Below the pieces are notes generated by a model, which saw nothing but the letters and a program-made list of their open reading frames with translations, was not told the origin of the DNA and did not search any database. DNA of 64,000 nucleotides from Dehalococcoidia bacterium (GTDB lineage: Bacteria; Chloroflexota; Dehalococcoidia; GIF9; AB-539-J10), in contig JAWOFK010000057.1 in NCBI GenBank assembly GCA_046497565.1, forward strand, positions 2,096-66,095, written 5' to 3'. The position numbers and the translations under genes are program-made. Shown piece by piece: positions 3,271 to 28,922 of the stretch; within the stretch, counting starts at the first letter, position 1, and the number at the start of each line of letters is the position of its first letter.

Positions 3271-4821
3271 ATGAAATTGCTGCCCAGACTGGCTATTGTT
3301 GTGGGCCTCTGCCTTACGGCCGTGGCCCTGCCGGCTGTGCCGGTGCAGGCCGACGAAGAACCACCTCCGCCTTCTATCACCCTTGCCCCCTCCTCGGGAG
3401 TGGTCGGTACAGAGGTTACCGTCCGCGGCTATAATTTTGAGCCCGATGAGTGGGCCGACATTTACTATGCCGGGACCTGGATGACCGAAGCCCACACCAC
3501 TGGTGCAGAGACAAGTTTCACGGCGACCTTCTTCGTTCCCGAGAGCTACAGGGGAATCCATCAGGTGCTCGCTGAGGTAGGAGATGATACAGCAGACGCT
3601 TACTTCACGGTCTGGCCGGGGCTGACGGTCAGTCCCGAGGAGGGCCCCGTAGGCGGCACGGTTATCGTGACAGGCCGCGGGTTTGCCAGGGATGAAACGG
3701 GCATCGAGCTGAGGTATTACCTTAATGGCACCTATGAAGCGGTGGCCGATAATATCACGGCGGGCGCCGCAGGGGGGTGGGAGGAGAGCTTTGAGATTCC
3801 CCCTTCCACGAAAGGAAGTCATAAGATAGATGCCCGGGGCGACGATAGCAGCCTTGCCGCGGTCAGGCATACCACCTTTATGGTAACCCCGGGGATAAGA
3901 ACAGACGAATTATCGGGCAGCCCGGGAGAAAGCATAGCGATGACGGGCAGCGGATTTACCGCGAATGAGAGGAATATCAGGATACTGTTTGACGGAGAGG
4001 CGGTGGTCGAGGACATCTGGGCGGACGACAAAGGGTACTGGCAGGAACCCTTCGAGGTGCCCGAGAGGCCGGGAGGCAACTATAGCGTCACCGCCGAGGG
4101 AGACTGGACTAAAGAAGCAGACTTAGACGAGATCAGCTTCGAGCTAAGGCCCGGCATTGTGCTGTATCCCGACGAAGGGCATGTGGGCATGAACCTGACC
4201 GTTACCGGCGGCGGGTTTGCCCCCAACGAAGGTGTGGTCATCATGTACGAGGGCCATGAGGAAGCGACGGCTACGACTGATGACAAAGGCAGCTTCGAGG
4301 TAACTTTTCCTGTGCCCGAGAGCAGACATGGCAAGCGCGACGTGACGGCCGAGGATGGTCAGGCGAACGAGGCCGCCGCCGACTTCACCATGGAGTCACA
4401 CCCTCCCCCCACCCCGGAACTCATTTCCCCGCCCGACGGGGGCAGGGCGGGATTCGTGGGCAGGGTGAGGCCGAGGTTTGAGTGGTCCGAGGTGGAGGAC
4501 CCCAGCGGAGTCTACTATAATCTGCAAATAGCAACCAGTGCCAATGTCACGGACACCGGGGAATTCGTTGACCCCATAGTGACGAAGGAGGGACTGGTGG
4601 GAGCGAACTACACCCTGGAGAAACCAGTGAGCTATGGCACCTACTACTGGATGGTGCAGGCCGTGGATGGGGCGGAGAACGAGAGCGGCTGGAGCGAAGT
4701 CTATTGCTTCCAGGCCGGACTCTTGCCTCTGTGGGCATTCATTGTTATCATGGTCCTTGTAGTATCGGGCGGCGGTGGCGCCGCTTACATCCATCTGAAA
4801 AGAAAAAAATTGTATGATTGA
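3271..4821 (+). CDS. membrane-anchored cell-surface protein with four tandem Ig-like repeats
   Basis: The signal peptide is MKLLPRLAIVVGLCLTAVALPAVPVQA. Four ~90-aa repeats each carry G..V.V.G.GF..(D/N)E (GTEVTVRGYNFEPDE, GGTVIVTGRGFARDE, GESIAMTGSGFTANE, GMNLTVTGGGFAPNE). An FN3-like module follows (YYWMVQAVDGAENESGWS). The C-terminal TM segment is LLPLWAFIVIMVLVV, followed by KRKK. Confidence 0.85.
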   Translation: MKLLPRLAIVVGLCLTAVALPAVPVQADEEPPPPSITLAPSSGVVGTEVTVRGYNFEPDEWADIYYAGTWMTEAHTTGAETSFTATFFVPESYRGIHQVLAEVGDDTADAYFTVWPGLTVSPEEGPVGGTVIVTGRGFARDETGIELRYYLNGTYEAVADNITAGAAGGWEESFEIPPSTKGSHKIDARGDDSSLAAVRHTTFMVTPGIRTDELSGSPGESIAMTGSGFTANERNIRILFDGEAVVEDIWADDKGYWQEPFEVPERPGGNYSVTAEGDWTKEADLDEISFELRPGIVLYPDEGHVGMNLTVTGGGFAPNEGVVIMYEGHEEATATTDDKGSFEVTFPVPESRHGKRDVTAEDGQANEAAADFTMESHPPPTPELISPPDGGRAGFVGRVRPRFEWSEVEDPSGVYYNLQIATSANVTDTGEFVDPIVTKEGLVGANYTLEKPVSYGTYYWMVQAVDGAENESGWSEVYCFQAGLLPLWAFIVIMVLVVSGGGGAAYIHLKRKKLYD

Positions 4822-4866
4822 GGGAGGGTCATTGGCAGGAGGCGCCGGGAGACAAGCCCATTCCGC

Positions 4867-4952
4867 GAGATTGCCGCGCTCCGCATGCGCTGCGCTCGCA
4901 ATGACACACTGGTTTGTCATTGCGAGTCCCGATTCATTGACACGAATGAATC
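4867..4952. repeat. pair of REP-like family 1 units (inverse then forward)
   Basis: GAGATTGCCGCG-CTCCGCATGCGCTGCG-CTCGCAATGAC spans 4867-4905. GTCATTGCGAG-TCCC-GATTCATTgacacgAATGAATC spans 4916-4952. Confidence 0.8.
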
Positions 4953-5001
4953 CAGACTAAACGAATAAGAAGGAAACAGGGCACAAAAGAAGGAGGGAAA
5001 A

Positions 5002-6180
5002 ATGAAGCTAACAGTTATCGGGCTGGGACAATGTGGAAGCCGGATTGCCGACCATTTTGCCAGGATGAATTTCAAGGCGCGCACTCAGCGCAAGGCAACC
5101 ATAGCCCCCACGGTTATTGCCGTGAATACGGACCAGGCGGACCTGACGGGGCTGAGGTTCATCAAGGACGACTTCCAGCACCGGGTGCTCCTCGGCTTGC
5201 GCCAGACACTGGGCCACGGGGTAGGCAAGATAAATGAACTGGGGGCACAACTGGCCAAGGAGGACGGCGATAAGGTGCTGGACGCCGTGAAAGCCAGCCC
5301 GCAGTTTTACGAGACACATGCCTTTCTTGTGGTGGCTGGCGCCGCCGGCGGCACGGGCTCAGGAGCTTTGCCCATCATATGCAGGGCGATTAAGGAGCGC
5401 TACATCAGCAAGCCGGTCTACGCCCTGGCAGTCCTGCCTTTCGAGCATGAGCAGACCACGGAGTCCAGAAGCGTATTCAACACCGCTACCTGCCTGAAAT
5501 CCACCTACGATATAGTGGATGCCGTCTTTCTGGCCGATAACCAGAGGTATCTCAGAAAAGACGCCAGTCTCGTCAGCAACATAGATACAATCAACAGGAT
5601 GATCGTGGAGCCTTTCTACGACTTGATGTGCGCCGGGGAAGTAACGAAGGCCAAATATGTGGGTGCCCGGACCATAGACGCCGGGGACATAATCGCCAGC
5701 CTGGAGGGATGGACCACTATCGGCCTGGGTAGACATGAGCTTCCTTCATTCCGCTTCCCCTGGGAGATAAGGAAGAGGAGTTTCCGCGAAAAAGCGCTGG
5801 AGAGCTTCCGGGGGACACAGGCGTTAGACGCCACCATCTCCGACCTTTCCCTCACCTGTAGCCCCAAAGATGCCGGCAAAGCCATATATATCCTGTCCGG
5901 TCCGGAAAGAGAGCTGAACATGGACATGGTCAAGAGCGTTGCCGATTACGTCAAGGAGCTGGCAGCCAATGCCTTGATTCGAGGCGGCGACTTCCCCGGG
6001 GAAAAGCACTACATCGACGTTACCCTGATTCTGTCACAGTTGTCCTTTGTGCCCAGGATAAAAGACTTCTACGAGGCAGCCACGCAGTATGCTCAAGAGC
6101 ATCAGGGGCAGATAGAGGAAACCAAGAAGAGGATTGAGTCCCTGGCCGAGTTCAGCAAGGACCTGCCCACGCTGGAATGA
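5002..6180 (+). CDS. tubulin/FtsZ-superfamily GTPase, CetZ-like
   Basis: An AGGAGGG SD precedes the ATG. Motifs in order are MKLTVIGLGQCG, AVNTDQADL, GHGVG, the tubulin-type G box AGGTGSG (res 115-121, nt 5344-5364) and PVYALAVLP. No division or cell-wall genes are adjacent. Confidence 0.8.
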   Translation: MKLTVIGLGQCGSRIADHFARMNFKARTQRKATIAPTVIAVNTDQADLTGLRFIKDDFQHRVLLGLRQTLGHGVGKINELGAQLAKEDGDKVLDAVKASPQFYETHAFLVVAGAAGGTGSGALPIICRAIKERYISKPVYALAVLPFEHEQTTESRSVFNTATCLKSTYDIVDAVFLADNQRYLRKDASLVSNIDTINRMIVEPFYDLMCAGEVTKAKYVGARTIDAGDIIASLEGWTTIGLGRHELPSFRFPWEIRKRSFREKALESFRGTQALDATISDLSLTCSPKDAGKAIYILSGPERELNMDMVKSVADYVKELAANALIRGGDFPGEKHYIDVTLILSQLSFVPRIKDFYEAATQYAQEHQGQIEETKKRIESLAEFSKDLPTLE

Positions 6181-6199
6181 GACATGGAAAACCCTAAAT

Positions 6200-6252
6200 G
6201 CAAAGGTCAAAATCAAAACGACAACCCGAAACGCAGAGTTTTTGACCTTTGC
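6200..6252. terminator. long hairpin between convergent genes (candidate bidirectional terminator)
   Basis: GCAAAGGTCAAAA (6200-6212) pairs perfectly with TTTTGACCTTTGC (6240-6252), giving a 13-bp stem and 27-nt loop. T-rich sequence lies around it. Confidence 0.4.
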
Positions 6253-6310
6253 TCCGTCATTTTGCACTTCTGTTTTTGCGAGAACCAGTTTCATCCCCGC
6301 CGGGAGGGAC

Positions 6311-6736
6311 CTATTCATTGGCTACCTTTATGCCCACCCCGATCCCCAGGGGCACAGCGACCTCGGTCAACACCTTCTGGACGGCTTCCCCGAGAGACTT
6401 CTTCTGCTCTCTGGTGATTTGATATTGGGTTTTTAACAGCCGGGCTATGATATTGGCTGCCTCGAACTGCCGGTCGATTCGCTCCGGCTCCTCTCGCACC
6501 AGCTTCCTGAACTTGACTCTGAGCAGAGCGATTTCCTCATCCAGCCCCTCGACATTAGAAGCTTCCTCAAGCTCAAGTTGTTCTACTACGTCCAGAGCAC
6601 AGCTGTAAAAACCACGCCCACTATCCTTTCCTTTGCTTCTTTCTATTGCTGCCATGAGAGTTACGAGTCCTCCGACTACGCCGCGGACTCCCAATGGAGT
6701 ATGACCTATGAGGGGAAGGAGAACCGGCAGAGCCAT
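6311..6736 (-). CDS. hypothetical protein
   Basis: This is the only long ORF in the gap. It has a charged helical middle (LDEEIALLRVKFRKLVREEPERIDRQFEAANIIARLL). No family was recognised. An internal ATG at 6655 has a better SD (GGAGGA), so the start is uncertain. Confidence 0.4.
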   Translation of the reverse strand: MALPVLLPLIGHTPLGVRGVVGGLVTLMAAIERSKGKDSGRGFYSCALDVVEQLELEEASNVEGLDEEIALLRVKFRKLVREEPERIDRQFEAANIIARLLKTQYQITREQKKSLGEAVQKVLTEVAVPLGIGVGIKVANE

Positions 6737-19324: not shown

Positions 19325-19353
19325 TTGTCAAAAAAAAACTACTTTGCTATAAT
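19325..19353 (+). promoter_or_regulatory. sigma-70-type promoter of the ATPase operon
   Basis: TTGTCA (19325-19330), a 17-nt spacer, then TGcTATAAT with the -10 at 19348-19353. It lies 98 nt upstream of the first ATG. Confidence 0.55.
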
Positions 19354-19450: not shown

Positions 19451-19762
19451 ATGCCGGAAGAAATCACCAGTAGCGTAGAAGCCATCGAAGTCGAAGCCCA
19501 CAAGATACTAGAAGAGGCGAGGGCCAGAGCCAACCAAATTCTCGTCGAAGCCAGGGAAGAAGCTAACAAGATACTATCGTCTGAGTTGCCGATGGACGAG
19601 GCAAAAGCTTTCTCTGACAAGTTTGTAAGCAGCGCTAAAGCGGAAGCGGAGAAAAAAATCGAGGATTCTGAGAAGAAAGCCGCCGAGATCAGGGCCACCG
19701 CTGATGACAAAGTAAAGGAAATTACCAAGCTCGTCGTGAATATTGTCACGGGCAGAAGTTAA
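19451..19762 (+). CDS. atpH: A/V-type ATPase small coiled-coil stalk subunit (H/G-like)
   Basis: It is 103 aa, Ala/Glu/Lys-rich and helical (EAHKILEEARARANQILVEAREEANKIL), and is the first gene of the operon. Confidence 0.7.
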   Translation: MPEEITSSVEAIEVEAHKILEEARARANQILVEAREEANKILSSELPMDEAKAFSDKFVSSAKAEAEKKIEDSEKKAAEIRATADDKVKEITKLVVNIVTGRS

Positions 19763-19763
19763 C

Positions 19764-21749
19764 ATGCCACCTCTAATCGTCAATACAGCTGACCCTATGG
19801 CCAAAGTCAGGGTCGTGACGACCAAGGATTACTCCACCAAGACCACCAAGACTCTCCATACCGCCGGTGTTCTTCACGTCGAGGAAAGCGAAGAGCTGAA
19901 GCCGGTAGATAAAGAGGCACTTGAAAGGGAAAGAAGAGCAATCGGCGAATTATTGACGGGCATTAACGACGTATTAGCTTACATACCAAAAGGAGAAAGA
20001 GTATCGCTGACAGAAGATGTGAAGGTTATATATACCAGGCCTTTTGACGAAGTCGACAGCGAAGTAAGGTCACTATGCACCAAGCTCAGCAACATGCATC
20101 AAAGCGCCACCAAACTCGACGAGGATGTTAAGGCGCTGACAGAACTGGCCAGGTATCTGGGCTCCCTTGAGCAACAGGCTGACATCAGGTTGGGAGACCT
20201 GAATTTTTCAGGAAGTTATCTTTTTTCCCAAGTCTTTGTGTTTCCCAACGACGTATTTGAAACTTCGTATTCTAAACTCAGAGACTACATACTCGACGAC
20301 GTTTCAGCCACAGTAGAAAACGAGACTGTCTTGTATGCCATTGCCAAAATAGAAGGCCGGGAAACTATAGAGTCCATAGTCAAGGATGCCGGAGGCAAGG
20401 TTTTACCGATACCAGAGGAGAATTTGACCCTGAGGGAATTTCTCGAAGTAGCCGACAGTAGAATTCACAATCTTGAACAGGAGTTGACGAAGCTTCAAGC
20501 CGACATTGAAAGTAAGACCAGAGAGAACCTAGAGAAGCTGGTCCTTTTCCGCGAGGCGTTATCAGCAGAAGCGGAAAGATTAGCAGTCTTAGCTAAAGCC
20601 TCGGAGGCAGAATACGTCACTCTGATCGAGGGGTGGATTCCCGAGAACAATGTCGAAGCTACAATTTCTGAACTCAAGGAGAACATAGGCTACGTGTTTA
20701 TTGACACGAGGAAGCCGGAGCAAGCGGAGGAGCCACCCACCAAAATGAAGAACCCGGCCGCTCTTAAGCCGTTCGAAGTCATTGTGAACCTGTTTGCTAC
20801 GCCAAAGTATAAGGAATGGGACCCCACTCCGATAATAGCGTACTCCTTCGCCCTTTTTTTTGGCCTCATGCTGGGCGACGTAGTGTACGCTGCCCTCCTC
20901 ATGCTATTTGCATACCGCGGACTGCGAATTCTCGTCGACGACCCTGAATCCGAAGGGTTTAAGCTATTTCAAAGGATAATCTACATTAGCGGTGGAGTCG
21001 CCCTGGTCATTGGTATGCTTACCGGAAGCTATTTGGGCAACTTCTACGAGTTCTTCGGAATCGAGAGTTTAGCACTTGCCCAGGCAATTCAAGCAGTTCT
21101 TGCAGACCCCGTGTCGTTCATAGGCATCTCATTATTAATAGGCCTGGTTCACGTGAACACAGCCCATGTGCTCGCACTTATTAGAGGAATAAAGGAGAGG
21201 CAGAAAGCGGTAGTGCCCAACAAAGCCGGTCTATTCATACTTCAGTTCGGTGCCATACCCTTGATTCTGGATATCATACTGGGCATACGTATCCCGGTGT
21301 TAGCTGAACAAACCACCCTGCTAGTTGCCGCGATTATCCTGGGCTTAGTATTAATTGTCGTCTCATCCCTGCTGGAGAAGGGTCCTTTCCTGGGCGGAAT
21401 TTTCTGGCTATTTGACCTGACCGGGATACTGGGCGACGTTATGTCATATGCCAGGCTGGCCGGTGTGGGGCTGGCCACGTATTACCTGGCATACTGCTTT
21501 AACCTCATGGCAGTGTTATTACGCGACATGATGCCGGTCGGAATAGTCCAGGCTATCGTTGGCACATTGATATTCATATTAGTTCTGCTTGTCGGACACC
21601 TGCTTAATCTGGCGCTCAGCGGCATAACGTGTTTCGTCCACTCCCTGAGACTATGCTTTGTGGAGTTCATGTTCAAGTTCTATGACGGAGGCGGCAAGGC
21701 ATACAGCCCGTTTCGGTTGAAACCTCGTCCTGTATCTGTCAAAGTATGA
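19764..21749 (+). CDS. atpI: A/V-type ATPase subunit I (membrane a-subunit)
   Basis: A ~330-aa soluble N-terminal domain is followed by a polytopic C-terminal half with SYARLAGVGLA (the essential Arg region). The start is ambiguous: 19743 in the track, 19764 immediately after the upstream stop, or 19797 (MAKVRVV). Confidence 0.9.
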   Translation: MPPLIVNTADPMAKVRVVTTKDYSTKTTKTLHTAGVLHVEESEELKPVDKEALERERRAIGELLTGINDVLAYIPKGERVSLTEDVKVIYTRPFDEVDSEVRSLCTKLSNMHQSATKLDEDVKALTELARYLGSLEQQADIRLGDLNFSGSYLFSQVFVFPNDVFETSYSKLRDYILDDVSATVENETVLYAIAKIEGRETIESIVKDAGGKVLPIPEENLTLREFLEVADSRIHNLEQELTKLQADIESKTRENLEKLVLFREALSAEAERLAVLAKASEAEYVTLIEGWIPENNVEATISELKENIGYVFIDTRKPEQAEEPPTKMKNPAALKPFEVIVNLFATPKYKEWDPTPIIAYSFALFFGLMLGDVVYAALLMLFAYRGLRILVDDPESEGFKLFQRIIYISGGVALVIGMLTGSYLGNFYEFFGIESLALAQAIQAVLADPVSFIGISLLIGLVHVNTAHVLALIRGIKERQKAVVPNKAGLFILQFGAIPLILDIILGIRIPVLAEQTTLLVAAIILGLVLIVVSSLLEKGPFLGGIFWLFDLTGILGDVMSYARLAGVGLATYYLAYCFNLMAVLLRDMMPVGIVQAIVGTLIFILVLLVGHLLNLALSGITCFVHSLRLCFVEFMFKFYDGGGKAYSPFRLKPRPVSVKV

Positions 21750-21786: not shown

Positions 21787-22266
21787 ATGCTAATCAGCCC
21801 CGAATCCCTGGCAATCCTGGGAGGTGCCATAGCCCTGGCTGGCGGACTGGCCGGCTCAGCCATGGGCATCGGTACCGCCGGCTCCGCCGGGGCAGCTACG
21901 CTGTCTGAGGAACCGGGACAACTCAGAAATGTGATTCTCCTCGCGTCACTGCCAATGACGCAGACCTTCTATGGTCTCATAACGCTGATACTTATTTTGA
22001 CAACGGTACGTGGGAACCTCGCTGAGGTGGCCAACGGCACCGGCATGGGTTTCGCAGTACTGGGCATCGGTATTATAGTCGCCCTGGCTGAATGGGTTTC
22101 AGCAGCTTACCAGGGCGCGGTGTGCGCTTCCGGTATCTCGCTCTTGCCCAAGACAAAGGGGAGGATACTGACTAACTCCATGATGCTGGCCGTGTTTGTC
22201 GAGCTAATAGGTGTGCTGGGACTGGTGTTTGCCATAATGGCACTGGCTATGTTGGGGCTTTTCTAA
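21787..22266 (+). CDS. atpK: A/V-type ATPase proteolipid subunit K (double hairpin, 4 TM)
   Basis: It is 159 aa, Gly/Ala-rich with 4 TM segments. Carboxylate E139 sits in FVELIG. Confidence 0.9.
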   Translation: MLISPESLAILGGAIALAGGLAGSAMGIGTAGSAGAATLSEEPGQLRNVILLASLPMTQTFYGLITLILILTTVRGNLAEVANGTGMGFAVLGIGIIVALAEWVSAAYQGAVCASGISLLPKTKGRILTNSMMLAVFVELIGVLGLVFAIMALAMLGLF

Positions 22267-22279
22267 AGGATTGATAAGA

Positions 22280-22861
22280 ATGGAAAAAATAAGTGAAGCC
22301 GTTGTCGGCAAAGTGAAGCAGGACGCCCAGAACATAGTAACACAGGCTGAGGAGAAAGCACAGGAAGAGATAGATAAGGCCAAAAAACAGCGAGAGGCGA
22401 GGTTCGAGGAAGAGAAGAGCAGAATGCTGGGAGAGGCAGAGGCGGAGGCGGCCAGAATCCTGGCTCAGGCTTCTATAAAAGCGCGGCAGCAGCTATCGAG
22501 CGCGAAAGCTGACACAATTTCCAAGATGATTGACGGGGCACAGCAGGAATTGTCCCAAATCTCAAGCGACGAAAGTCATTTGCTGAACTTGATTAAAGAA
22601 GCTATGGAAGGCCTGGGTGTGGATAAAGGCAGAATTTACGTTGCTCCCAAAGATGTGAGCACCGCAAAAAAACTCCTTGAAGCGGACAAGAATTTATCCG
22701 GCAAGATAGTGGATATCAGGGAAACCGATTGCCTGGGAGGCGTCATAGCTGAGGATATTGAAGGAAAGCTTAGAATAGACAACACCTACGAAACCAGACT
22801 CGAGATGCTGTTGCCGAAGTTGTTGCCCGAGATAAACAGGAAGCTGTTCGAAGCTCCATAA
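22280..22861 (+). CDS. atpE: A/V-type ATPase subunit E
   Basis: It has a long N-terminal helix (KVKQDAQNIVTQAEEKAQEEIDKAKKQ) and a globular C-terminus. The ATG at 22280 lies 9 nt after AAAGGA; the track start at 22271 is TTG. Confidence 0.85.
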   Translation: MEKISEAVVGKVKQDAQNIVTQAEEKAQEEIDKAKKQREARFEEEKSRMLGEAEAEAARILAQASIKARQQLSSAKADTISKMIDGAQQELSQISSDESHLLNLIKEAMEGLGVDKGRIYVAPKDVSTAKKLLEADKNLSGKIVDIRETDCLGGVIAEDIEGKLRIDNTYETRLEMLLPKLLPEINRKLFEAP

Positions 22862-22870
22862 AGGAACATC

Positions 22871-23905
22871 GTGCTTACTCCAAAATACGCGTTCATATCT
22901 GCTTGTCTGAAAGGCGAGGAACCTAAGACTGTCACCTCCGAACACATAGACAGAATGGCGACAGCGTCTAACATACAGGATGCCCTGGTGGTCATTAGAG
23001 AGACCGGTATAGGTAGCTATCTGGAAGAATTGCCGGTCAGGAGTTTTGATTATCTCGATGAATGCCTGTGGGGTTATCTGGCGCAGCGCATCAAATACGT
23101 AGAATCATTTAAATTCCTGCCCGGAGATGTACTGAAGGTATCCAGAGCATACGTGGTAAAGTATGACGTCTCAAATATCAAAGCTGCCCTGCAAGGCATC
23201 TCGGGTGACAAGAAAGCCCCTATGATACCGGTCGGGGTTATCCACAATCATGGATTGCTGGATGAACTGTTCAACGCCGAGACTGTTGATGACATCATCG
23301 CGCTACTCATCAGGTGCAAACTGGCGGATTATGTGCCTGCCCTGGAACAGTACAAGACAGATAAAGGCACAAAGTCGAAGCTCCTTGTTGAGGCCAGGTT
23401 AGACGCTGAGTACTATAAGGAAATGCTAAACATGGCCAGAAGGATAAAAGACGGCTATGTACTTGCCAAAGCCTTCGGCTTAGTGATAGATCTCACAAAC
23501 CTGCAAATTGCCTCAAGGGCTATCATCGAAGGTGCAGGACTCGATGCTGCCGAATGCACTATTGCCGGGGGATACAGGATTCCGGACAAAGCTATAAGAG
23601 AATTACTACCGCTCAAATTAGCCGACTTGCCCACCAGGCTGGATATCGCCCAATATCAGGATATAGCAAATGAAGTATCTGCCAGCTTCGAGAAGACAAA
23701 GAACATCACGGCTGTAGAAGAGATTATCGATAAGCACAAGTTCAGGATGCTCCAGGACATGTTGTCACCGAGGGTGCTATCCCCTCTGGTTATGGCCTGG
23801 TATCTAATCCTCAAGGAGGTTGAAGTACGGAACTTGAGACTGGTCCTGAAAGCAATAGTCGATGGTGTTCCCGTTCAGGAAATAAAGAATAATCTGGTGC
23901 TGTAA
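22871..23905 (+). CDS. atpC: A/V-type ATPase subunit C (d-like)
   Basis: It is 344 aa and helical, at the expected operon position, with a GTG start after AAAGGA. Confidence 0.8.
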   Translation: MLTPKYAFISACLKGEEPKTVTSEHIDRMATASNIQDALVVIRETGIGSYLEELPVRSFDYLDECLWGYLAQRIKYVESFKFLPGDVLKVSRAYVVKYDVSNIKAALQGISGDKKAPMIPVGVIHNHGLLDELFNAETVDDIIALLIRCKLADYVPALEQYKTDKGTKSKLLVEARLDAEYYKEMLNMARRIKDGYVLAKAFGLVIDLTNLQIASRAIIEGAGLDAAECTIAGGYRIPDKAIRELLPLKLADLPTRLDIAQYQDIANEVSASFEKTKNITAVEEIIDKHKFRMLQDMLSPRVLSPLVMAWYLILKEVEVRNLRLVLKAIVDGVPVQEIKNNLVL

Positions 23906-23906
23906 C

Positions 23907-24260
23907 ATGATGCCTATTAGAAACCTGGATATAGCTGTCATAGGAGACGAAGAACTGGTCAATGGACTGAGATTGGCCGGTATCAGCAATTATTACATGA
24001 TAAAGGACGATCACGATGTCCGTGAAAATGTAAGGAAAGCCGTAACGGAGTTGCTGGCCGAGCCTGATGTCGGTATAGTGATAATGCTGGAGGACTACGC
24101 ACAATATGTCGAAGACGTAGTGGCCCAGGTTAGAAAAGGGAGAAGAATGACTCCCGTAATCATCGAGGTCCCATCGAAGTTTGGCACCAAGCACCCTGAC
24201 GTCAGGGAATATTACAGGGCACTTATCAGAGAATCTATCGGGTTTGAAGTTGAAATCTGA
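23907..24260 (+). CDS. atpF: A/V-type ATPase subunit F
   Basis: It is 117 aa with IAVIGDEELVNGLRLAGI, typical of subunit F. Confidence 0.85.
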   Translation: MMPIRNLDIAVIGDEELVNGLRLAGISNYYMIKDDHDVRENVRKAVTELLAEPDVGIVIMLEDYAQYVEDVVAQVRKGRRMTPVIIEVPSKFGTKHPDVREYYRALIRESIGFEVEI

Positions 24261-24289: not shown

Positions 24290-26041
24290 ATGGGCAAAAT
24301 ATGGAGAGTTTCGGGTCCTCTAGTTATAGCCGATGACATGAAGGGTTCCCAGGTCTATGAAGTTGTTGAGATAGGTGAAGAGGGGCTCGTCGGGGAGATA
24401 GTAGGACTGGAAGGGGATAGGGCGATAATTCAAGCACACGAGGATACTTTGGGGTTGAAAACTGGTGAGGTTGTAATAGGGACGGGGAGGATCCTGAGCG
24501 TGGAGCTGGGCCCTGGACTCGTGGGTTCTATCTACGACGGGTTGCAGAAATCCTTGCTTACCCTGGGTGAGAATACCGGCCCGTTCATAAAACGGGGTGT
24601 CAAAGCCTCAGCACTTCCCCGGGACAAGAAATGGCAGTTCACGCCCACAGTCAAGGCGGGGGATGCCGTCAGCCAGGGAGATATAATAGGCACAGTTCCC
24701 GAGACCCACCTGATAGAACACAGGATAATGGTGCCGGCAGGCATCACGGGTACAATAAAGGACATACGCAAAGGAGAATACACCGTTGAAGAGCCTGTAG
24801 CCCGGGTGGAACATGGTGGGGAAGTAAAAGAAATTACGATGATGCAGCAGTGGCCTGTAAGAAAGCCCAGACCCTACAGGCAGAGGTTCGACCCTTCGGG
24901 CTTGCTCACTACCGGCATGCGGATTTTGGATTACATGTTCCCCCTGGCTCTTGGTGGCAAAGCTTCGATACCAGGAGGCTTTGGTACCGGAAAAACCGTC
25001 GCCTTGCAACAGCTGGCCAGATGGGCCCAGACGCATCTGAACATCTACGTCGGCTGTGGCGAAAGGGGTAACGAGATGGCCGACGTGCTTTCTAGCTTCA
25101 GAGAACTCAAGGACCCCAACACAGGAAGGTTATTACAGGAGAAAGAGATCTTTCTGGCTAACACCTCCAACATGCCTGTTGTGGCCAGGGAAGCAAGTAT
25201 TTTCGTCGGCATTACTATGGCCGAGTACTTCCGGGACATGGGCTACGACATTCTGCTGGTTGCTGATTCAACCTCGAGATGGGCTGAAGCCATGAGGGAA
25301 ATGAGCGGAAGACTTGAGGAAATGCCCGGCGAGGAAGGTTTCCCTTCATATATGGGGTCCCGGCTTTCCTCTTTTTACGAAAGGGCAGGGATGGTTCAAT
25401 GCGTGGGCAATCCCGAAAGACAGGGATCAGTAACGGTAGCCGGTGCCGTGAGCCCCCCCGGAGCCGATTTCAGCGAACCGGTCACCCAGAACACACTCAG
25501 AATAATAGATGCCCTGTACGCGTTGGAGGTTTCGCTGGCCAACAAGAGACATTTCCCGGCCATAAGCTGGCTCGCCAGCTACAGCCTTTATGTAGACGCA
25601 GTTAAAGACTGGTGGAATGAGCATGACCCGGGCTGGGAGAATACCAGAGCCAGCGCCCTGAGAGTATTGCAACAGGAGGCTGAACTGGAAGAAATTGTGA
25701 GGCTGGTAGGCCCCGAATCTTTGCCCGAAGGAGACAAATTATTGCTGCTTATCGCCAGGATGATACGCGAGGACTTTCTCCAGCAAAGCGCCTATCATGA
25801 AGTTGACACCTACTGTATGCCGGCAAAAGCCGGCCTCATGCTCAAAACCATAATGAAGTTCTACGAACTGGCCCAGGAGATGCTGAATTCCGGTTCAGGT
25901 ATTGAGAGCATCCGCTCATCGCCCATGGTCTACAGAATATCAAGGATGAAGGATATACCCAACGAGGACTCTGAACAGAGAGTCAAGGAATTGTGGTCGG
26001 AGATGGAACAAAGCCTGGTAACTGGCAAACGGGTTCCCTGA
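24290..26041 (+). CDS. atpA: A/V-type ATPase catalytic subunit A
   Basis: The P-loop is GGFGTGKTV. Other motifs are GERGNEM and DSTSRWAEA. At 583 aa there is no intein. Confidence 0.95.
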
Positions 26042-26057: not shown

Positions 26058-27455
26058 ATGGATTTTTTACCACTTTACGTTAAAGAAGGAAGAGCAATTA
26101 GTAGTGCTAAGGGAGCTTTGCTCGTAGCTGAGAGCATTCCCGGCATAAAATTCAATGAGATAGTTGATGTTCACCTTGGGAATGGTGAAGTTAAAAGTGG
26201 TCAGGCAATAGACATCAGTGAGAAGGCAACTATAGTCCAGGTATTTGGCGGGGTCAGCGAAGTGGACCTCGTCGGCAGCAAGATAAGATGTAAAGGCGAG
26301 ACTTTAAAGCTGCCGGTATCTATTGACATTCTGGGCAGAATCTTCAATGGTATGGGAGAACCCATAGACGGAGGCCCGCGCATAATCCCCGAAGATTACC
26401 TGGATATTAACGGTGAACCAATAAACCCCGCCACCCGCCAGCCCCCAGCCGAGTTTATTGAAACTGGAATCTCGGCGATAGATGGCCTGAACGCATTAGT
26501 TAGAGGACAGAAATTGCCCATATTTAGCGGTTCGGGCCTACCGCACAACCGGATTGTAGCTCAAATACTGAGGCAAGCAACCGTAAAGGGCAAGGAGGAA
26601 AGGTTCGCTCTGGTATTTGCCGCTCTTGGCATCAGTTACGATGATGCCTCGTATTTCATGAGGGATCTAGAGAGGACAGGCGCACTGGAGAGAACTGTGG
26701 CCTTCATCAATACCGCGTCCGACCCCGTTATCGAGCGGATATCGACACCGAGGTTGGCTTTAACCGCAGCCGACTATCTGGCATGGAAACATAATATGCA
26801 TGTGCTGGTCATACTTACCGACATGACCAATTATTGCGAATCTCTCCGCGAACTTTCTTCTATGCGTGAAGAGATACCCTCCAGAAGGGGATATCCCGGG
26901 TATATGTACACCGACCTTGCCACGATGTATGAGAGAGCAGGCAGGATTTCCGGAAGAGAAGGCTCGGTAACTATAATGCCCATTCTGACCATGCCTGACG
27001 ACGACATAACGCATCCCATACCCGACCTTACCGGCTACATAACTGAGGGACAGATTGTTCTGTCACGAAATCTGGAAAGAAAAGGGGTATACCCACCAAT
27101 AGATGTGTTCTTATCCCTTTCGCGAATGATGAAAGAGGGAATTGGGCCTGATAAGACCCGAGAGGACCATAACAACGTCTTCATGCAGTCCTATGCTGCC
27201 TATGCTGAAGGATGTTATCTCAGGGAGATATCCACCATCATAGGTGCTGAGGCGTTGGGTGAAAGGGACAAGATATATTTGACCAGCGCAGACGAGTTCG
27301 AGAGGAAATTCATATCTCAAGGGGAGTGGGAGAAGAGGATGGTAGAGGATACCCTGGATATAGCCTGGGGGCTGTTTTCAGCACTGCCTGAAGAAGACTT
27401 GAAACTAATTAAAGAGGAGTTCATCAAGAAGTACCTTCCCCGGTACCGGAAGTAA
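26058..27455 (+). CDS. atpB: A/V-type ATPase subunit B
   Basis: The sequence SGSGLPHN replaces a P-loop. Other motifs are [12 protein letters not shown] and [11 protein letters not shown]. Confidence 0.95.
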
Positions 27456-27472: not shown

Positions 27473-28102
27473 ATGCCGGATATAATCAAAGTTAGACCTA
27501 CCAAAATTGAGCTGGTTAAACTAAAACGCAGGCTTTACCTGGCCCAGAGAGTCCAAAAGATATTGAAGGACAGGCTTTCCATATTAACCATGGAGTTCTT
27601 GCAGACGGCCAGAGAGACAGTGGAGGCCAAGAGAATACTTCTTGACGAATTAACTAAGCTTTATAAGGCGTTATCAATCGCCGCCGGGTATCACGGGTAC
27701 ATAGCCCTGGAAAAGGAGCTGATAGCCTCTGAGTCTGATTTGCAGGTCACCGCTGGCTCGAGAAACATCGCAGGTGTGCGAATTCCGTCTTTCGAGCTCA
27801 TGAGCAACGAGAAGTCACTGAGAGACTATAATCTGGTTGATACTTCCTCGTGGTTGGACCGTGCAGCGCAACTATCTGAAGAATGTCTTAAACCTATTGT
27901 GGAATTAGCTGAGCTTCAGAGGAGTTTTGAATTACTGGCAATGGAAATAAATAGGACAAAAAGGATAACTAATGCTTTAGAATATATAGTAATCCCGGGC
28001 TTACAGGTGACCATCAATTATCTAAATATGAAGTTTGAGGAACGGGATAGGGAAGAGAAAGCGCGGCTGAAACGTGTAAAGGTGCTGGTCGGTCGAGGAT
28101 AG
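27473..28102 (+). CDS. atpD: A/V-type ATPase subunit D
   Basis: The N-terminus reads VRPTKIELVKLKRRL, followed by long coiled-coil helices. It is 209 aa. Confidence 0.9.
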   Translation: MPDIIKVRPTKIELVKLKRRLYLAQRVQKILKDRLSILTMEFLQTARETVEAKRILLDELTKLYKALSIAAGYHGYIALEKELIASESDLQVTAGSRNIAGVRIPSFELMSNEKSLRDYNLVDTSSWLDRAAQLSEECLKPIVELAELQRSFELLAMEINRTKRITNALEYIVIPGLQVTINYLNMKFEERDREEKARLKRVKVLVGRG

Positions 28103-28106
28103 ACAA

Positions 28107-28577
28107 ATGCACAGGCCACTACAAGATGAAGCCACGATGCAATCGGGGCAATCTCCCTATGAAAAAATACTTCAGCAATGCTTGAGGGGCGAGTTCAGGC
28201 TGGTGAACGCCGGGCTGCCACGAAGCCCAAAACGACTATCGAATTTGCTAAACGAGAGCTATCCTCATGTGGTATGCAACGATGGCAGCACCCACTTCTT
28301 CAAGAAAAGTGAGCTTGAGTATCTGGCGGGCATGATAGATGCCGCTGAGCAAGAAGCACTTGCATTGCCCATGCTTATAGAACTGGGGGCCAATGAAGCC
28401 GAGGCGGCCATAATATGCCAGGGAAAGCTGGAAGAGAAAGTCATATCAAAAGCGCTTGATATGCCGGTAACCTGCGAACAAAGGAGGATCAGAATATACA
28501 GACCACAACTAGCCCTGCTGAGAAGTAAGTTCAAAACAACAACTGTTTATGTATTCTCTGCCAGAATTGTTGCCTGA
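28107..28577 (+). CDS. UPF0216/DUF61-like protein (archaeal-type family)
   Basis: The ATG at 28107 lies 4 nt after the atpD stop, with a GAGGA SD 7 nt upstream. The pattern LP..PKRLSNLL....P.V...DGSTHFFKKSELEYLA......E...L.LP.LIE........A.I..GK.E.KVISK.L......IYRP.L..LR....TTT.Y.F matches my memory of Pyrococcus-type UPF0216 proteins. Confidence 0.6.
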   Translation: MHRPLQDEATMQSGQSPYEKILQQCLRGEFRLVNAGLPRSPKRLSNLLNESYPHVVCNDGSTHFFKKSELEYLAGMIDAAEQEALALPMLIELGANEAEAAIICQGKLEEKVISKALDMPVTCEQRRIRIYRPQLALLRSKFKTTTVYVFSARIVA

Positions 28578-28612: not shown

Positions 28613-28641
28613 TTGACAAAGATCCGCACTTAAGAGATAAT
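28613..28641 (+). promoter_or_regulatory. sigma-70-type promoter directly abutting rpsP
   Basis: TTGACA (28613-28618), a 17-nt spacer, then GATAAT (28636-28641). The ATG at 28653 is only 11 nt downstream and there is no SD. Confidence 0.55.
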
Positions 28642-28652
28642 CACTTTATCAA

Positions 28653-28922
28653 ATGGTAAAAATTAGATTACGCCGTATGGGAAGGAGAAACAGGCCATTC
28701 TACCGAGTGGTAGTGGCCGATAGTCGTTCTCCCCGAGATGGTCGGTTCATTGAGATTATCGGGCATTACAATCCTTTGACCGAACCCTCGACCGTCGACA
28801 TCAATGAAGAGAAAGCTTTGAAGTGGCTCAGGTGTGGGGCCCAGCCCACGGATACAGTACGCAGCTTACTTAACAAACTGGGCATCATGGACAAGGTTAA
28901 GCTGGCCTCAGGCCAAAACTAA
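28653..28922 (+). CDS. rpsP: 30S ribosomal protein S16
   Basis: The N-terminus [41 protein letters not shown] is S16-like. Confidence 0.97.

Follow-up and report, generated by a model that had tools for sequence, protein, structure and literature searches.

Bacterial F-type atp operons encode, in AtpI (also called UncI), a non-stoichiometric assembly helper that is not found in the purified enzyme, is patchily distributed and can be dispensed with by some organisms; this membrane protein, whose gene lies at the operon's 5' end, acts on the c-ring. For A-type ATP synthases, we know of no assembly or regulatory factor that has been established. The aha operon of Methanosarcina mazei contains a tenth gene after ahaD whose product, AhaG, is a hydrophobic peptide of 6.3 kDa, and whether AhaG is a member of the enzyme has been left open (PMC4350412, PMC3750248). 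Here we analyze a gene that closes another A-type (A1AO) ATPase operon, located on a 64,000-nt stretch of DNA from a Dehalococcoidia bacterium (GCA_046497565.1, contig JAWOFK010000057.1; this whole stretch is referred to below as the window, and positions count from its start). The open reading frame at 28107-28577 on the + strand codes for a 156-aa protein of DUF61 (UPF0216, PF01886), a family for which the Pfam and NCBIfam entries assign no function and for which a structure has been solved (5VFK). From its genomic context we consider it rather likely that this soluble protein, encoded by the last coupled gene of the A1AO operon, acts as a non-core accessory factor of the A-type ATPase.

A preliminary description of this DNA had placed the open reading frame in UPF0216/DUF61 from a pattern of motifs, all of which are indeed present in the translation (NDGSTHFFKKSELEYLAG, LPMLIE, GKLEEKVISK and TTTVYVF), and the protein conforms to the motifs of the family as a whole (LN.HLP, DG..H.F...EL..LA, L.LPI.IE and a C-terminal TTTQY.F). 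Profile searches bear out the assignment: PF01886 matches with an E value of 4.2e-30 and 104.9 bits (cut-off 27), with residues 25-150 aligned to profile positions 3-127 of 127, i.e., over the full length of the family, and the NCBIfam equivalog PRK04115 scores 116.8 bits (cut-off 114). The fold match to 5VFK described below agrees with these results, and relatives of the protein carry the NCBI label 'DUF61 family protein'. There were no ATPase families among the Pfam and NCBIfam matches with E up to 10, and DUF61 is not homologous to any of the nine A1AO/V-type subunit families (A, B, C, D, E, F, H, I and K). The family is small, accounting among 1.8 billion representatives for 131 clusters (50% identity), and the positions conserved across alignments of 71 and of 19 members are N34, P38, P53, D59-G60, E69-L70, L87-P88, R139, T144-T146, Y148 and F150. 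Five longer members (P0122, P0128, P0174, P0153 and P0201) were considered as informative fusions and rejected.

Within the genus, the ratio of nonsynonymous to synonymous substitution rates (dN/dS) is ~0.12 for DUF61, 0.10 for atpD and 0.04 for atpB, and the 4-nt junction between atpD and DUF61 is retained in most genus loci; because of this constraint and this conserved junction, the open reading frame is not a chance frame. That it might be decaying or spurious, without function in this bacterium, finds nothing in its favor beyond the unassigned function of the family, and is excluded by the full-length profile match, by the dN/dS value, by a confidently predicted fold and by the presence of the intact gene in 28 genomes of the genus and in 7 further Dehalococcoidia. 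The window gene is a genuine DUF61 member under purifying selection, and its product is an ordinary member of a known DUF.

The operon is of the A type and has the gene order H-I-K-E-C-F-A-B-D-DUF61. At the junction of the last two genes, four nucleotides (ACAA) separate the atpD stop codon (TAG, 28100-28102) from the DUF61 ATG at 28107, and the gene has, as in the preliminary description, a GAGGA Shine-Dalgarno sequence of its own; it is read within the end of atpD (28095-28099, + strand) and lies 7 nt before the ATG. Tight junctions are common among relatives: taking as the DUF61 start the candidate closest to the atpD stop, the two genes overlap or are separated by <=10 nt in 47/54 adjacent pairs, examples being GTGA/ATGA overlaps, TAATG and the 4-nt gap of the window. 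This arrangement indicates that DUF61 is translationally coupled to atpD.

A scan of the window found no terminator-like site 3' of atpD or of DUF61. The promoter of rpsP (TTGACA-17-GATAAT, 28613-28641, + strand, 11/12 positions in the scan) is conserved in 14 genus loci, in which the remaining DUF61-rpsP spacer ranges from ~75 to >250 nt, and it marks the downstream edge of the atp unit. Because no terminator intervenes and the conserved rpsP promoter starts only after DUF61, we assign DUF61 by sequence to the atp unit, which it closes, and not to the rpsP unit. The 4-nt gap, the Shine-Dalgarno sequence, the absent terminator, the position of the next promoter and the internal placement of DUF61 in a related operon (L021, below) all mark it as operon-encoded at the level of sequence.

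The association with atpD is regular among bacterial relatives. The order atpB-atpD-DUF61 was present in 19/19 fetched genus loci, with rpsP-khpA next wherever the contig reaches, and in 7/7 Dehalococcoidia loci from outside the genus (5 other genera), mostly with other genes downstream. Among 401 sampled Chloroflexota genomes, 31 encode AtpD and 8 encode DUF61; the latter come from 6 genera and 4 families, all within the class Dehalococcoidia, where DUF61 accompanies AtpD in 8/8 genomes. In the same sample, DUF61 was found in none of the 23 AtpD-positive genomes of other classes, which have V-type ATPases.

A protein 46% identical to the window DUF61 (P0129) is encoded on metagenomic contigs (L021-23) whose flanks, with genes for PfkB, DUF4416, TPR and T2SSE proteins, are unlike those of the window. 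The operon there has the order I-K-E-C-F-A-B-D-DUF61-orf147-H, so that DUF61 lies inside it. In L021 (10496-11276), subunit H is encoded after DUF61 and not before atpI, and the intervening orf147 (P0285, 147 aa) has no Pfam match; its candidacy as a DUF61 paralogue was rejected (hhalign probability 0.4).

For archaea, a motif-seeded scan with one genome per species gave 80 DUF61 loci, a biased sample in that the scan alignment (A3) picks members with the motif R[RKS]xLPTTTQY. Seven of the 80 were uninformative; among the 73 others, atpD precedes DUF61 on the same strand in 53, directly adjacent in 32, at a distance of 0.46-2.2 kb in 20 and at 5.1 kb in 1, and in 20/80 the upstream sequence is free of atpD for at least 3 kb. 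Adjacent pairs occur in Hydrothermarchaeota, Hadarchaeota, Methanocellales and metagenome-assembled genomes (MAGs) labelled Desulfurococcales or Thermoprotei. In Hadarchaeota, E-C-F-D-DUF61 are kept together though atpA and atpB sit on the opposite strand; a small membrane open reading frame is found 3' of DUF61 in this group.

Two larger samples extend these observations. In the phylum of the Methanobacteriaceae genome that carries locus L060 (G458; 141 genomes sampled), DUF61 is present in 70/141 genomes, and for 67 of the 70 genes atpD is found upstream on the same strand, at a distance of 0.57-5.1 kb; the Methanobacteriaceae loci that were examined have a DUF22 gene between the two. This DUF22 gene (PF01629) occupies the same position in L046, L054, L060, L065, other Methanobacteriaceae and a few others, and in L024, L027 and L028 a DUF749 gene (PF05370) follows DUF61. 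In the Thermoproteota sample (201 genomes, 84 with DUF61 and 165 with AtpD), DUF61 is enriched in genomes that have AtpD, occurring in 81/165 AtpD-positive as against 3/36 AtpD-negative genomes (p 3e-6). The linkage of atpD and DUF61 recurs across phyla and in two domains of life, yet it is not universal.

The bacterial operons have archaeal affinities. The window AtpB shares 59-74% identity with archaeal AtpB and only 49-54% with V-type AtpB of other Chloroflexota. In a tree of AtpB (C-half) plus AtpD, the Dehalococcoidia and L021 form one clade (support 100), whose sister group consists of the Desulfurococcales-labelled MAGs L053 and L064 (support 100); both groups fall on the archaeal, DUF61-linked side of the tree, from which the clade of other Chloroflexota is split off (support 100). 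The DUF61 tree repeats the same two groupings, with support of 99 for Dehalococcoidia plus L021 and 97 for their union with the Desulfurococcales-labelled MAGs. We take L064 to be truly archaeal because a Pelota/aRF1-type gene comes after its DUF61. Since the two trees are congruent and DUF61 is absent from the 23 other-class Chloroflexota with V-type ATPases, the acquisition of operon and DUF61 en bloc from an archaeal donor, which the preliminary description had raised, is well supported. There is no base-composition break at the window atp operon, and the transfer is therefore old. The flanks of the operon are bacterial (prfB, nfi, rpsP, khpA, recO and trkAH), and named homologues are labelled Dehalococcoidia or Chloroflexota.

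Within the genus, AtpD and DUF61 are encoded by the same 28 of 37 genomes. The gamma subunit of the F-type enzyme (PF00231) is found in 0/28 of these AtpD-bearing genomes, in 5 genus genomes that do not have the A-type operon and in 24/24 genomes of other families of the order; the A-type operon encodes the sole rotary ATPase of this Dehalococcoidia bacterium. That Dehalococcoidia may have a V/A-type ATPase only, with the F-type absent, has already been published (bioRxiv 10.1101/2021.08.23.457424). The 28 genus genomes display the same phenomenon; the DUF61 gene, the archaeal sister group and the co-transfer are not mentioned in that report.

One genus member records a loss of the operon. G024, which has an F-type enzyme and no A-type operon, carries at the syntenic site (locus L104, G024:C33:66000-74000, positions 3910-6461) prfB, nfi, a gene for a 769-aa H+-pyrophosphatase (H+-PPase), a 46-aa C-terminal remnant of DUF61 that is 74% identical, rpsP and khpA. 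The operon has been deleted in this genome and DUF61 has not been retained. Extra H+-PPase matches were seen in the F-type members G003, G024, G032 and G036, with one match in most other genus genomes. DUF61 is co-inherited and co-lost with the ATPase genes, as seen in the trees, in the 28/28 co-occurrence and in the G024 remnant. The transfer constitutes a natural experiment, which is the strongest argument for a role with the ATPase and in which operon and DUF61 stay coupled under purifying selection across several families and vanish together.

A model of the window DUF61 obtained with AlphaFold2 (AF2) from an alignment of 71 diverse members is confident, with a predicted local distance difference test score (pLDDT) of 90.9 and a predicted template modelling score (pTM) of 0.81. 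When it was compared with the PDB using Foldseek, the sole significant match was 5VFK (E 7e-8, TM 0.65-0.69; next match at E 0.29), and no rotary-ATPase chain was among the matches. The DUF61 profile of alignment A1 likewise identified 5VFK among PDB sequences (E 4e-6), and a PDB sequence search with the single window protein gave no match. These results bear on the idea that DUF61 is a nucleic-acid-binding autoregulator of the transcription or translation of the atp operon, a role that would suit a small, operon-encoded and mildly to strongly basic protein and that might be hinted at by one sub-threshold NCBIfam match to a GntR-type regulator (E 0.059). The confident model, however, has neither a helix-turn-helix (HTH) nor a winged-helix fold, there are no regulators among the Foldseek matches, no recurrent HTH family was found in the 71 members, and a 3'-end position coupled to D would be unusual for a regulator. 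An autoregulatory function is, in our estimation, highly improbable.

Genomic context carries the functional inference for DUF61; fold and sequence suggest no activity, and several observations weigh against a role with the ATPase. The conserved residues are mainly structural (P, G and L) and offer no catalytic or binding signature, no second Pfam family was found to recur in the 71 members in a search at E up to 1, and the fold resembles only that of another DUF61 protein. The natural in-frame AtpD-TAG-DUF61 read-through of locus L038 was modelled as a fusion, with a block alignment (A5) that contains four natural read-through fusions; the AF2 model, an exploratory one, has confident domains, a pTM of 0.53 and a junction pLDDT of <50. 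It lends no support to a rigid AtpD-DUF61 complex and, because the method is a non-multimer one that gives no predicted aligned error, it would not refute such a complex either. In Thermoproteota, DUF61 is mostly far from atpD, with ~6 adjacent cases among the 84 DUF61-bearing genomes. The conserved ATPase linkage suggested in the preliminary description, which holds in Dehalococcoidia, in L021 and in several archaeal phyla and is seen in 53/73 informative archaeal loci, so that homologues next to ATPase genes do exist elsewhere, accordingly breaks down in most Thermoproteota and in other lineages. Linkage is absent in Methanothrix, Methanoperedens, Alkanophaga and Methanoliparia, and the DUF61 neighbors in such lineages vary (ribosomal protein P1, FtsJ, ArsR/MarR and HD proteins). 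SSO0941, the DUF61 protein of 5VFK, presumably lies outside the Sulfolobus atp cluster, judging from its locus number. Finally, the complete enzyme of M. jannaschii is reported with nine subunits, going by the title of Lingl et al. (2003) as it appears in PMC4985227. The M. jannaschii genome encodes DUF61. The nine subunits are reportedly the canonical ones, in which case the M. jannaschii enzyme does not have DUF61 as a stoichiometric subunit.

This last point bears on the possibility that lineages with DUF61 use it as an extra stoichiometric A1AO subunit, such as a cap or stator element. Coupling to atpD, the internal position in the L021 operon and the perfect co-occurrence in Dehalococcoidia would all be expected of a subunit. 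DUF61 is not, however, present wherever the enzyme is: it is missing from about half of the ATPase-bearing genomes sampled (84/165 AtpD-positive Thermoproteota and 71/141 genomes of the G458 phylum), as it is from the 23 Chloroflexota of other classes. The PDB holds no rotary-ATPase chain similar to it and, within the limits of the title cited above, M. jannaschii pairs a nine-subunit enzyme with a DUF61 gene. We consider an additional subunit to be quite improbable.

The distant Thermoproteota copies could also be accounted for if DUF61 had a housekeeping role outside the ATPase, perhaps one in translation or in RNA metabolism, its place after atpD being an inherited gene order with which it entered bacteria as a passenger. 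Archaeal members are basic (isoelectric point up to 9.7); both ribosomal protein P1 and the FtsJ rRNA methyltransferase are found beside DUF61 in unlinked lineages; the next gene in the sister archaeal clade is Pelota/aRF1-like, and in the window rpsP and khpA come next; and Foldseek gives a weak, non-significant likeness to aIF1/SUI1 and RRF (probability <=0.38). A passenger in need of archaeal machinery should nevertheless decay, whereas every bacterial A-type operon seen has retained DUF61, at a dN/dS of 0.12, and the genus genomes without the operon all lack it, save for the stub in G024. Moreover, rpsP has a conserved promoter of its own, adjacency to atpD survives three different operon architectures, and the translation-related neighbors vary by lineage. 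We therefore regard a function unconnected with the ATPase as unlikely.

How an accessory factor of the A-type ATPase might work can be outlined. Because only the operon and DUF61 moved from an archaeal genome into bacteria, DUF61 would work with the ATPase itself and not with archaea-specific machinery, and because about half of the ATPase-bearing archaea sampled do without it, it would be auxiliary and not a core subunit. As DUF61 follows atpD, remains next to it when atpA and atpB, or atpH, are relocated, and is translationally coupled, it is most likely produced 1:1 with subunit D and perhaps acts on the central stalk (D/F). It could then be either a dedicated chaperone that assembles or stabilizes D/F or a brake on wasteful ATP hydrolysis, a role that would be analogous in logic to that of AtpI/UncI in F-type operons, without homology. 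This mechanism, with D as the partner and a chaperone or a regulator as the alternatives, is inferred. More tentatively, and as a reading that is less likely than not, we propose that DUF61 is a dedicated partner of D, a chaperone or hydrolysis brake co-translated 1:1 with it, and important enough to have moved with the operon from archaea into bacteria and to have been kept while the F-type enzyme was discarded; no auxiliary factor of a prokaryotic A1AO enzyme would have been described before it.

A literature search of limited scope found no functional study of DUF61, UPF0216, PF01886 or SSO0941, and no published account of the linkage, of the bacterial co-transfer or of what they may imply for function. 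Gene order across phyla and domains, co-phylogeny and the natural transfer experiment together turn an old family into the subject of a testable accessory-factor hypothesis. If true, it would give a textbook machine one more part and would explain the recurring tenth gene in the operons of uncultured Dehalococcoidia that rely on the A-type enzyme alone.

The window operon is compact and its features are all on the + strand; DUF61 is, as the preliminary description had counted, its tenth and last gene. A promoter-like site (TTGTCA-17-TATAAT with TG, 19325-19353) precedes the operon and matches 11/12 positions in a consensus scan, a consensus match only. The first gene, atpH (19451-19762, 103 aa), has no Pfam match of its own; it is assigned to the peripheral-stalk subunit H/G because its product is 51% identical (E 1e-35) to a 106-aa, H-like open reading frame of the related operon L021, which in turn weakly matches A-ATP_synth_H_N. 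The eight genes between atpH and DUF61 are identified by Pfam: atpI, for the membrane subunit a/I (19743-21749; PF01496, E 7e-30); atpK, for the c/K proteolipid (21787-22266, 159 aa; PF00137, E 3.6e-18), in which two ATP-synt_C stretches point to a duplicated, four-helix proteolipid; atpE (22271-22861; PF01991, E 5.5e-26); atpC, for subunit d/AC39 (22871-23905; PF01992, E 1.4e-44); atpF (23907-24260; PF01990, E 1.1e-19); atpA, for the catalytic subunit (24290-26041; PF00006, PF16886, PF22919 and PF02874); atpB (26058-27455; PF00006 and PF22919); and atpD, for the central-stalk subunit D (27473-28102; PF01813, E 4.2e-49).

Two further observations concern neighboring and related genes. The rpsP promoter ends 11 nt upstream of the rpsP ATG, and there is no Shine-Dalgarno sequence for rpsP in window positions 28613-28655; for these two reasons the rpsP mRNA is probably near-leaderless. 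In the archaeal MAG loci L040 (786-4031 and 4061-7042) and L050 (3605-6895), the tblastn matches of AtpA (both loci) and of AtpB (L040) are interrupted by insertions of ~1.5 kb, and these insertions in the catalytic subunits are probably inteins.

Compared with the described systems, the window protein is closest in family and fold to SSO0941 of Saccharolobus solfataricus (PDB 5VFK, solved by nuclear magnetic resonance), with which it aligns over 124 columns; at an identity of only ~15%, SSO0941 represents a distant branch. In genomic setting, the nearest counterpart is AhaG of M. mazei, which is likewise the product of an extra, patchily distributed gene of unassigned role that comes straight after the gene for A1AO subunit D (PMC4350412, PMC3750248). 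The window protein differs in being a soluble alpha/beta protein of 17 kDa, and there is no homology between the two; that AhaG and DUF61 might be the same gene was considered and rejected, AhaG being a hydrophobic peptide of 6.3 kDa. More generally, DUF61 shows no homology to the known accessory factors AtpI and AhaG, its only Pfam match being to DUF61 itself. AtpI/UncI is set apart as well by the solubility of DUF61, by its position at the 3' end of the operon and by its coupling to subunit D, and the two share no sequence or fold similarity. Like AtpI/UncI, however, DUF61 is encoded within an ATPase operon and is patchily distributed, and it is to this F-type helper that we propose it may be functionally analogous.

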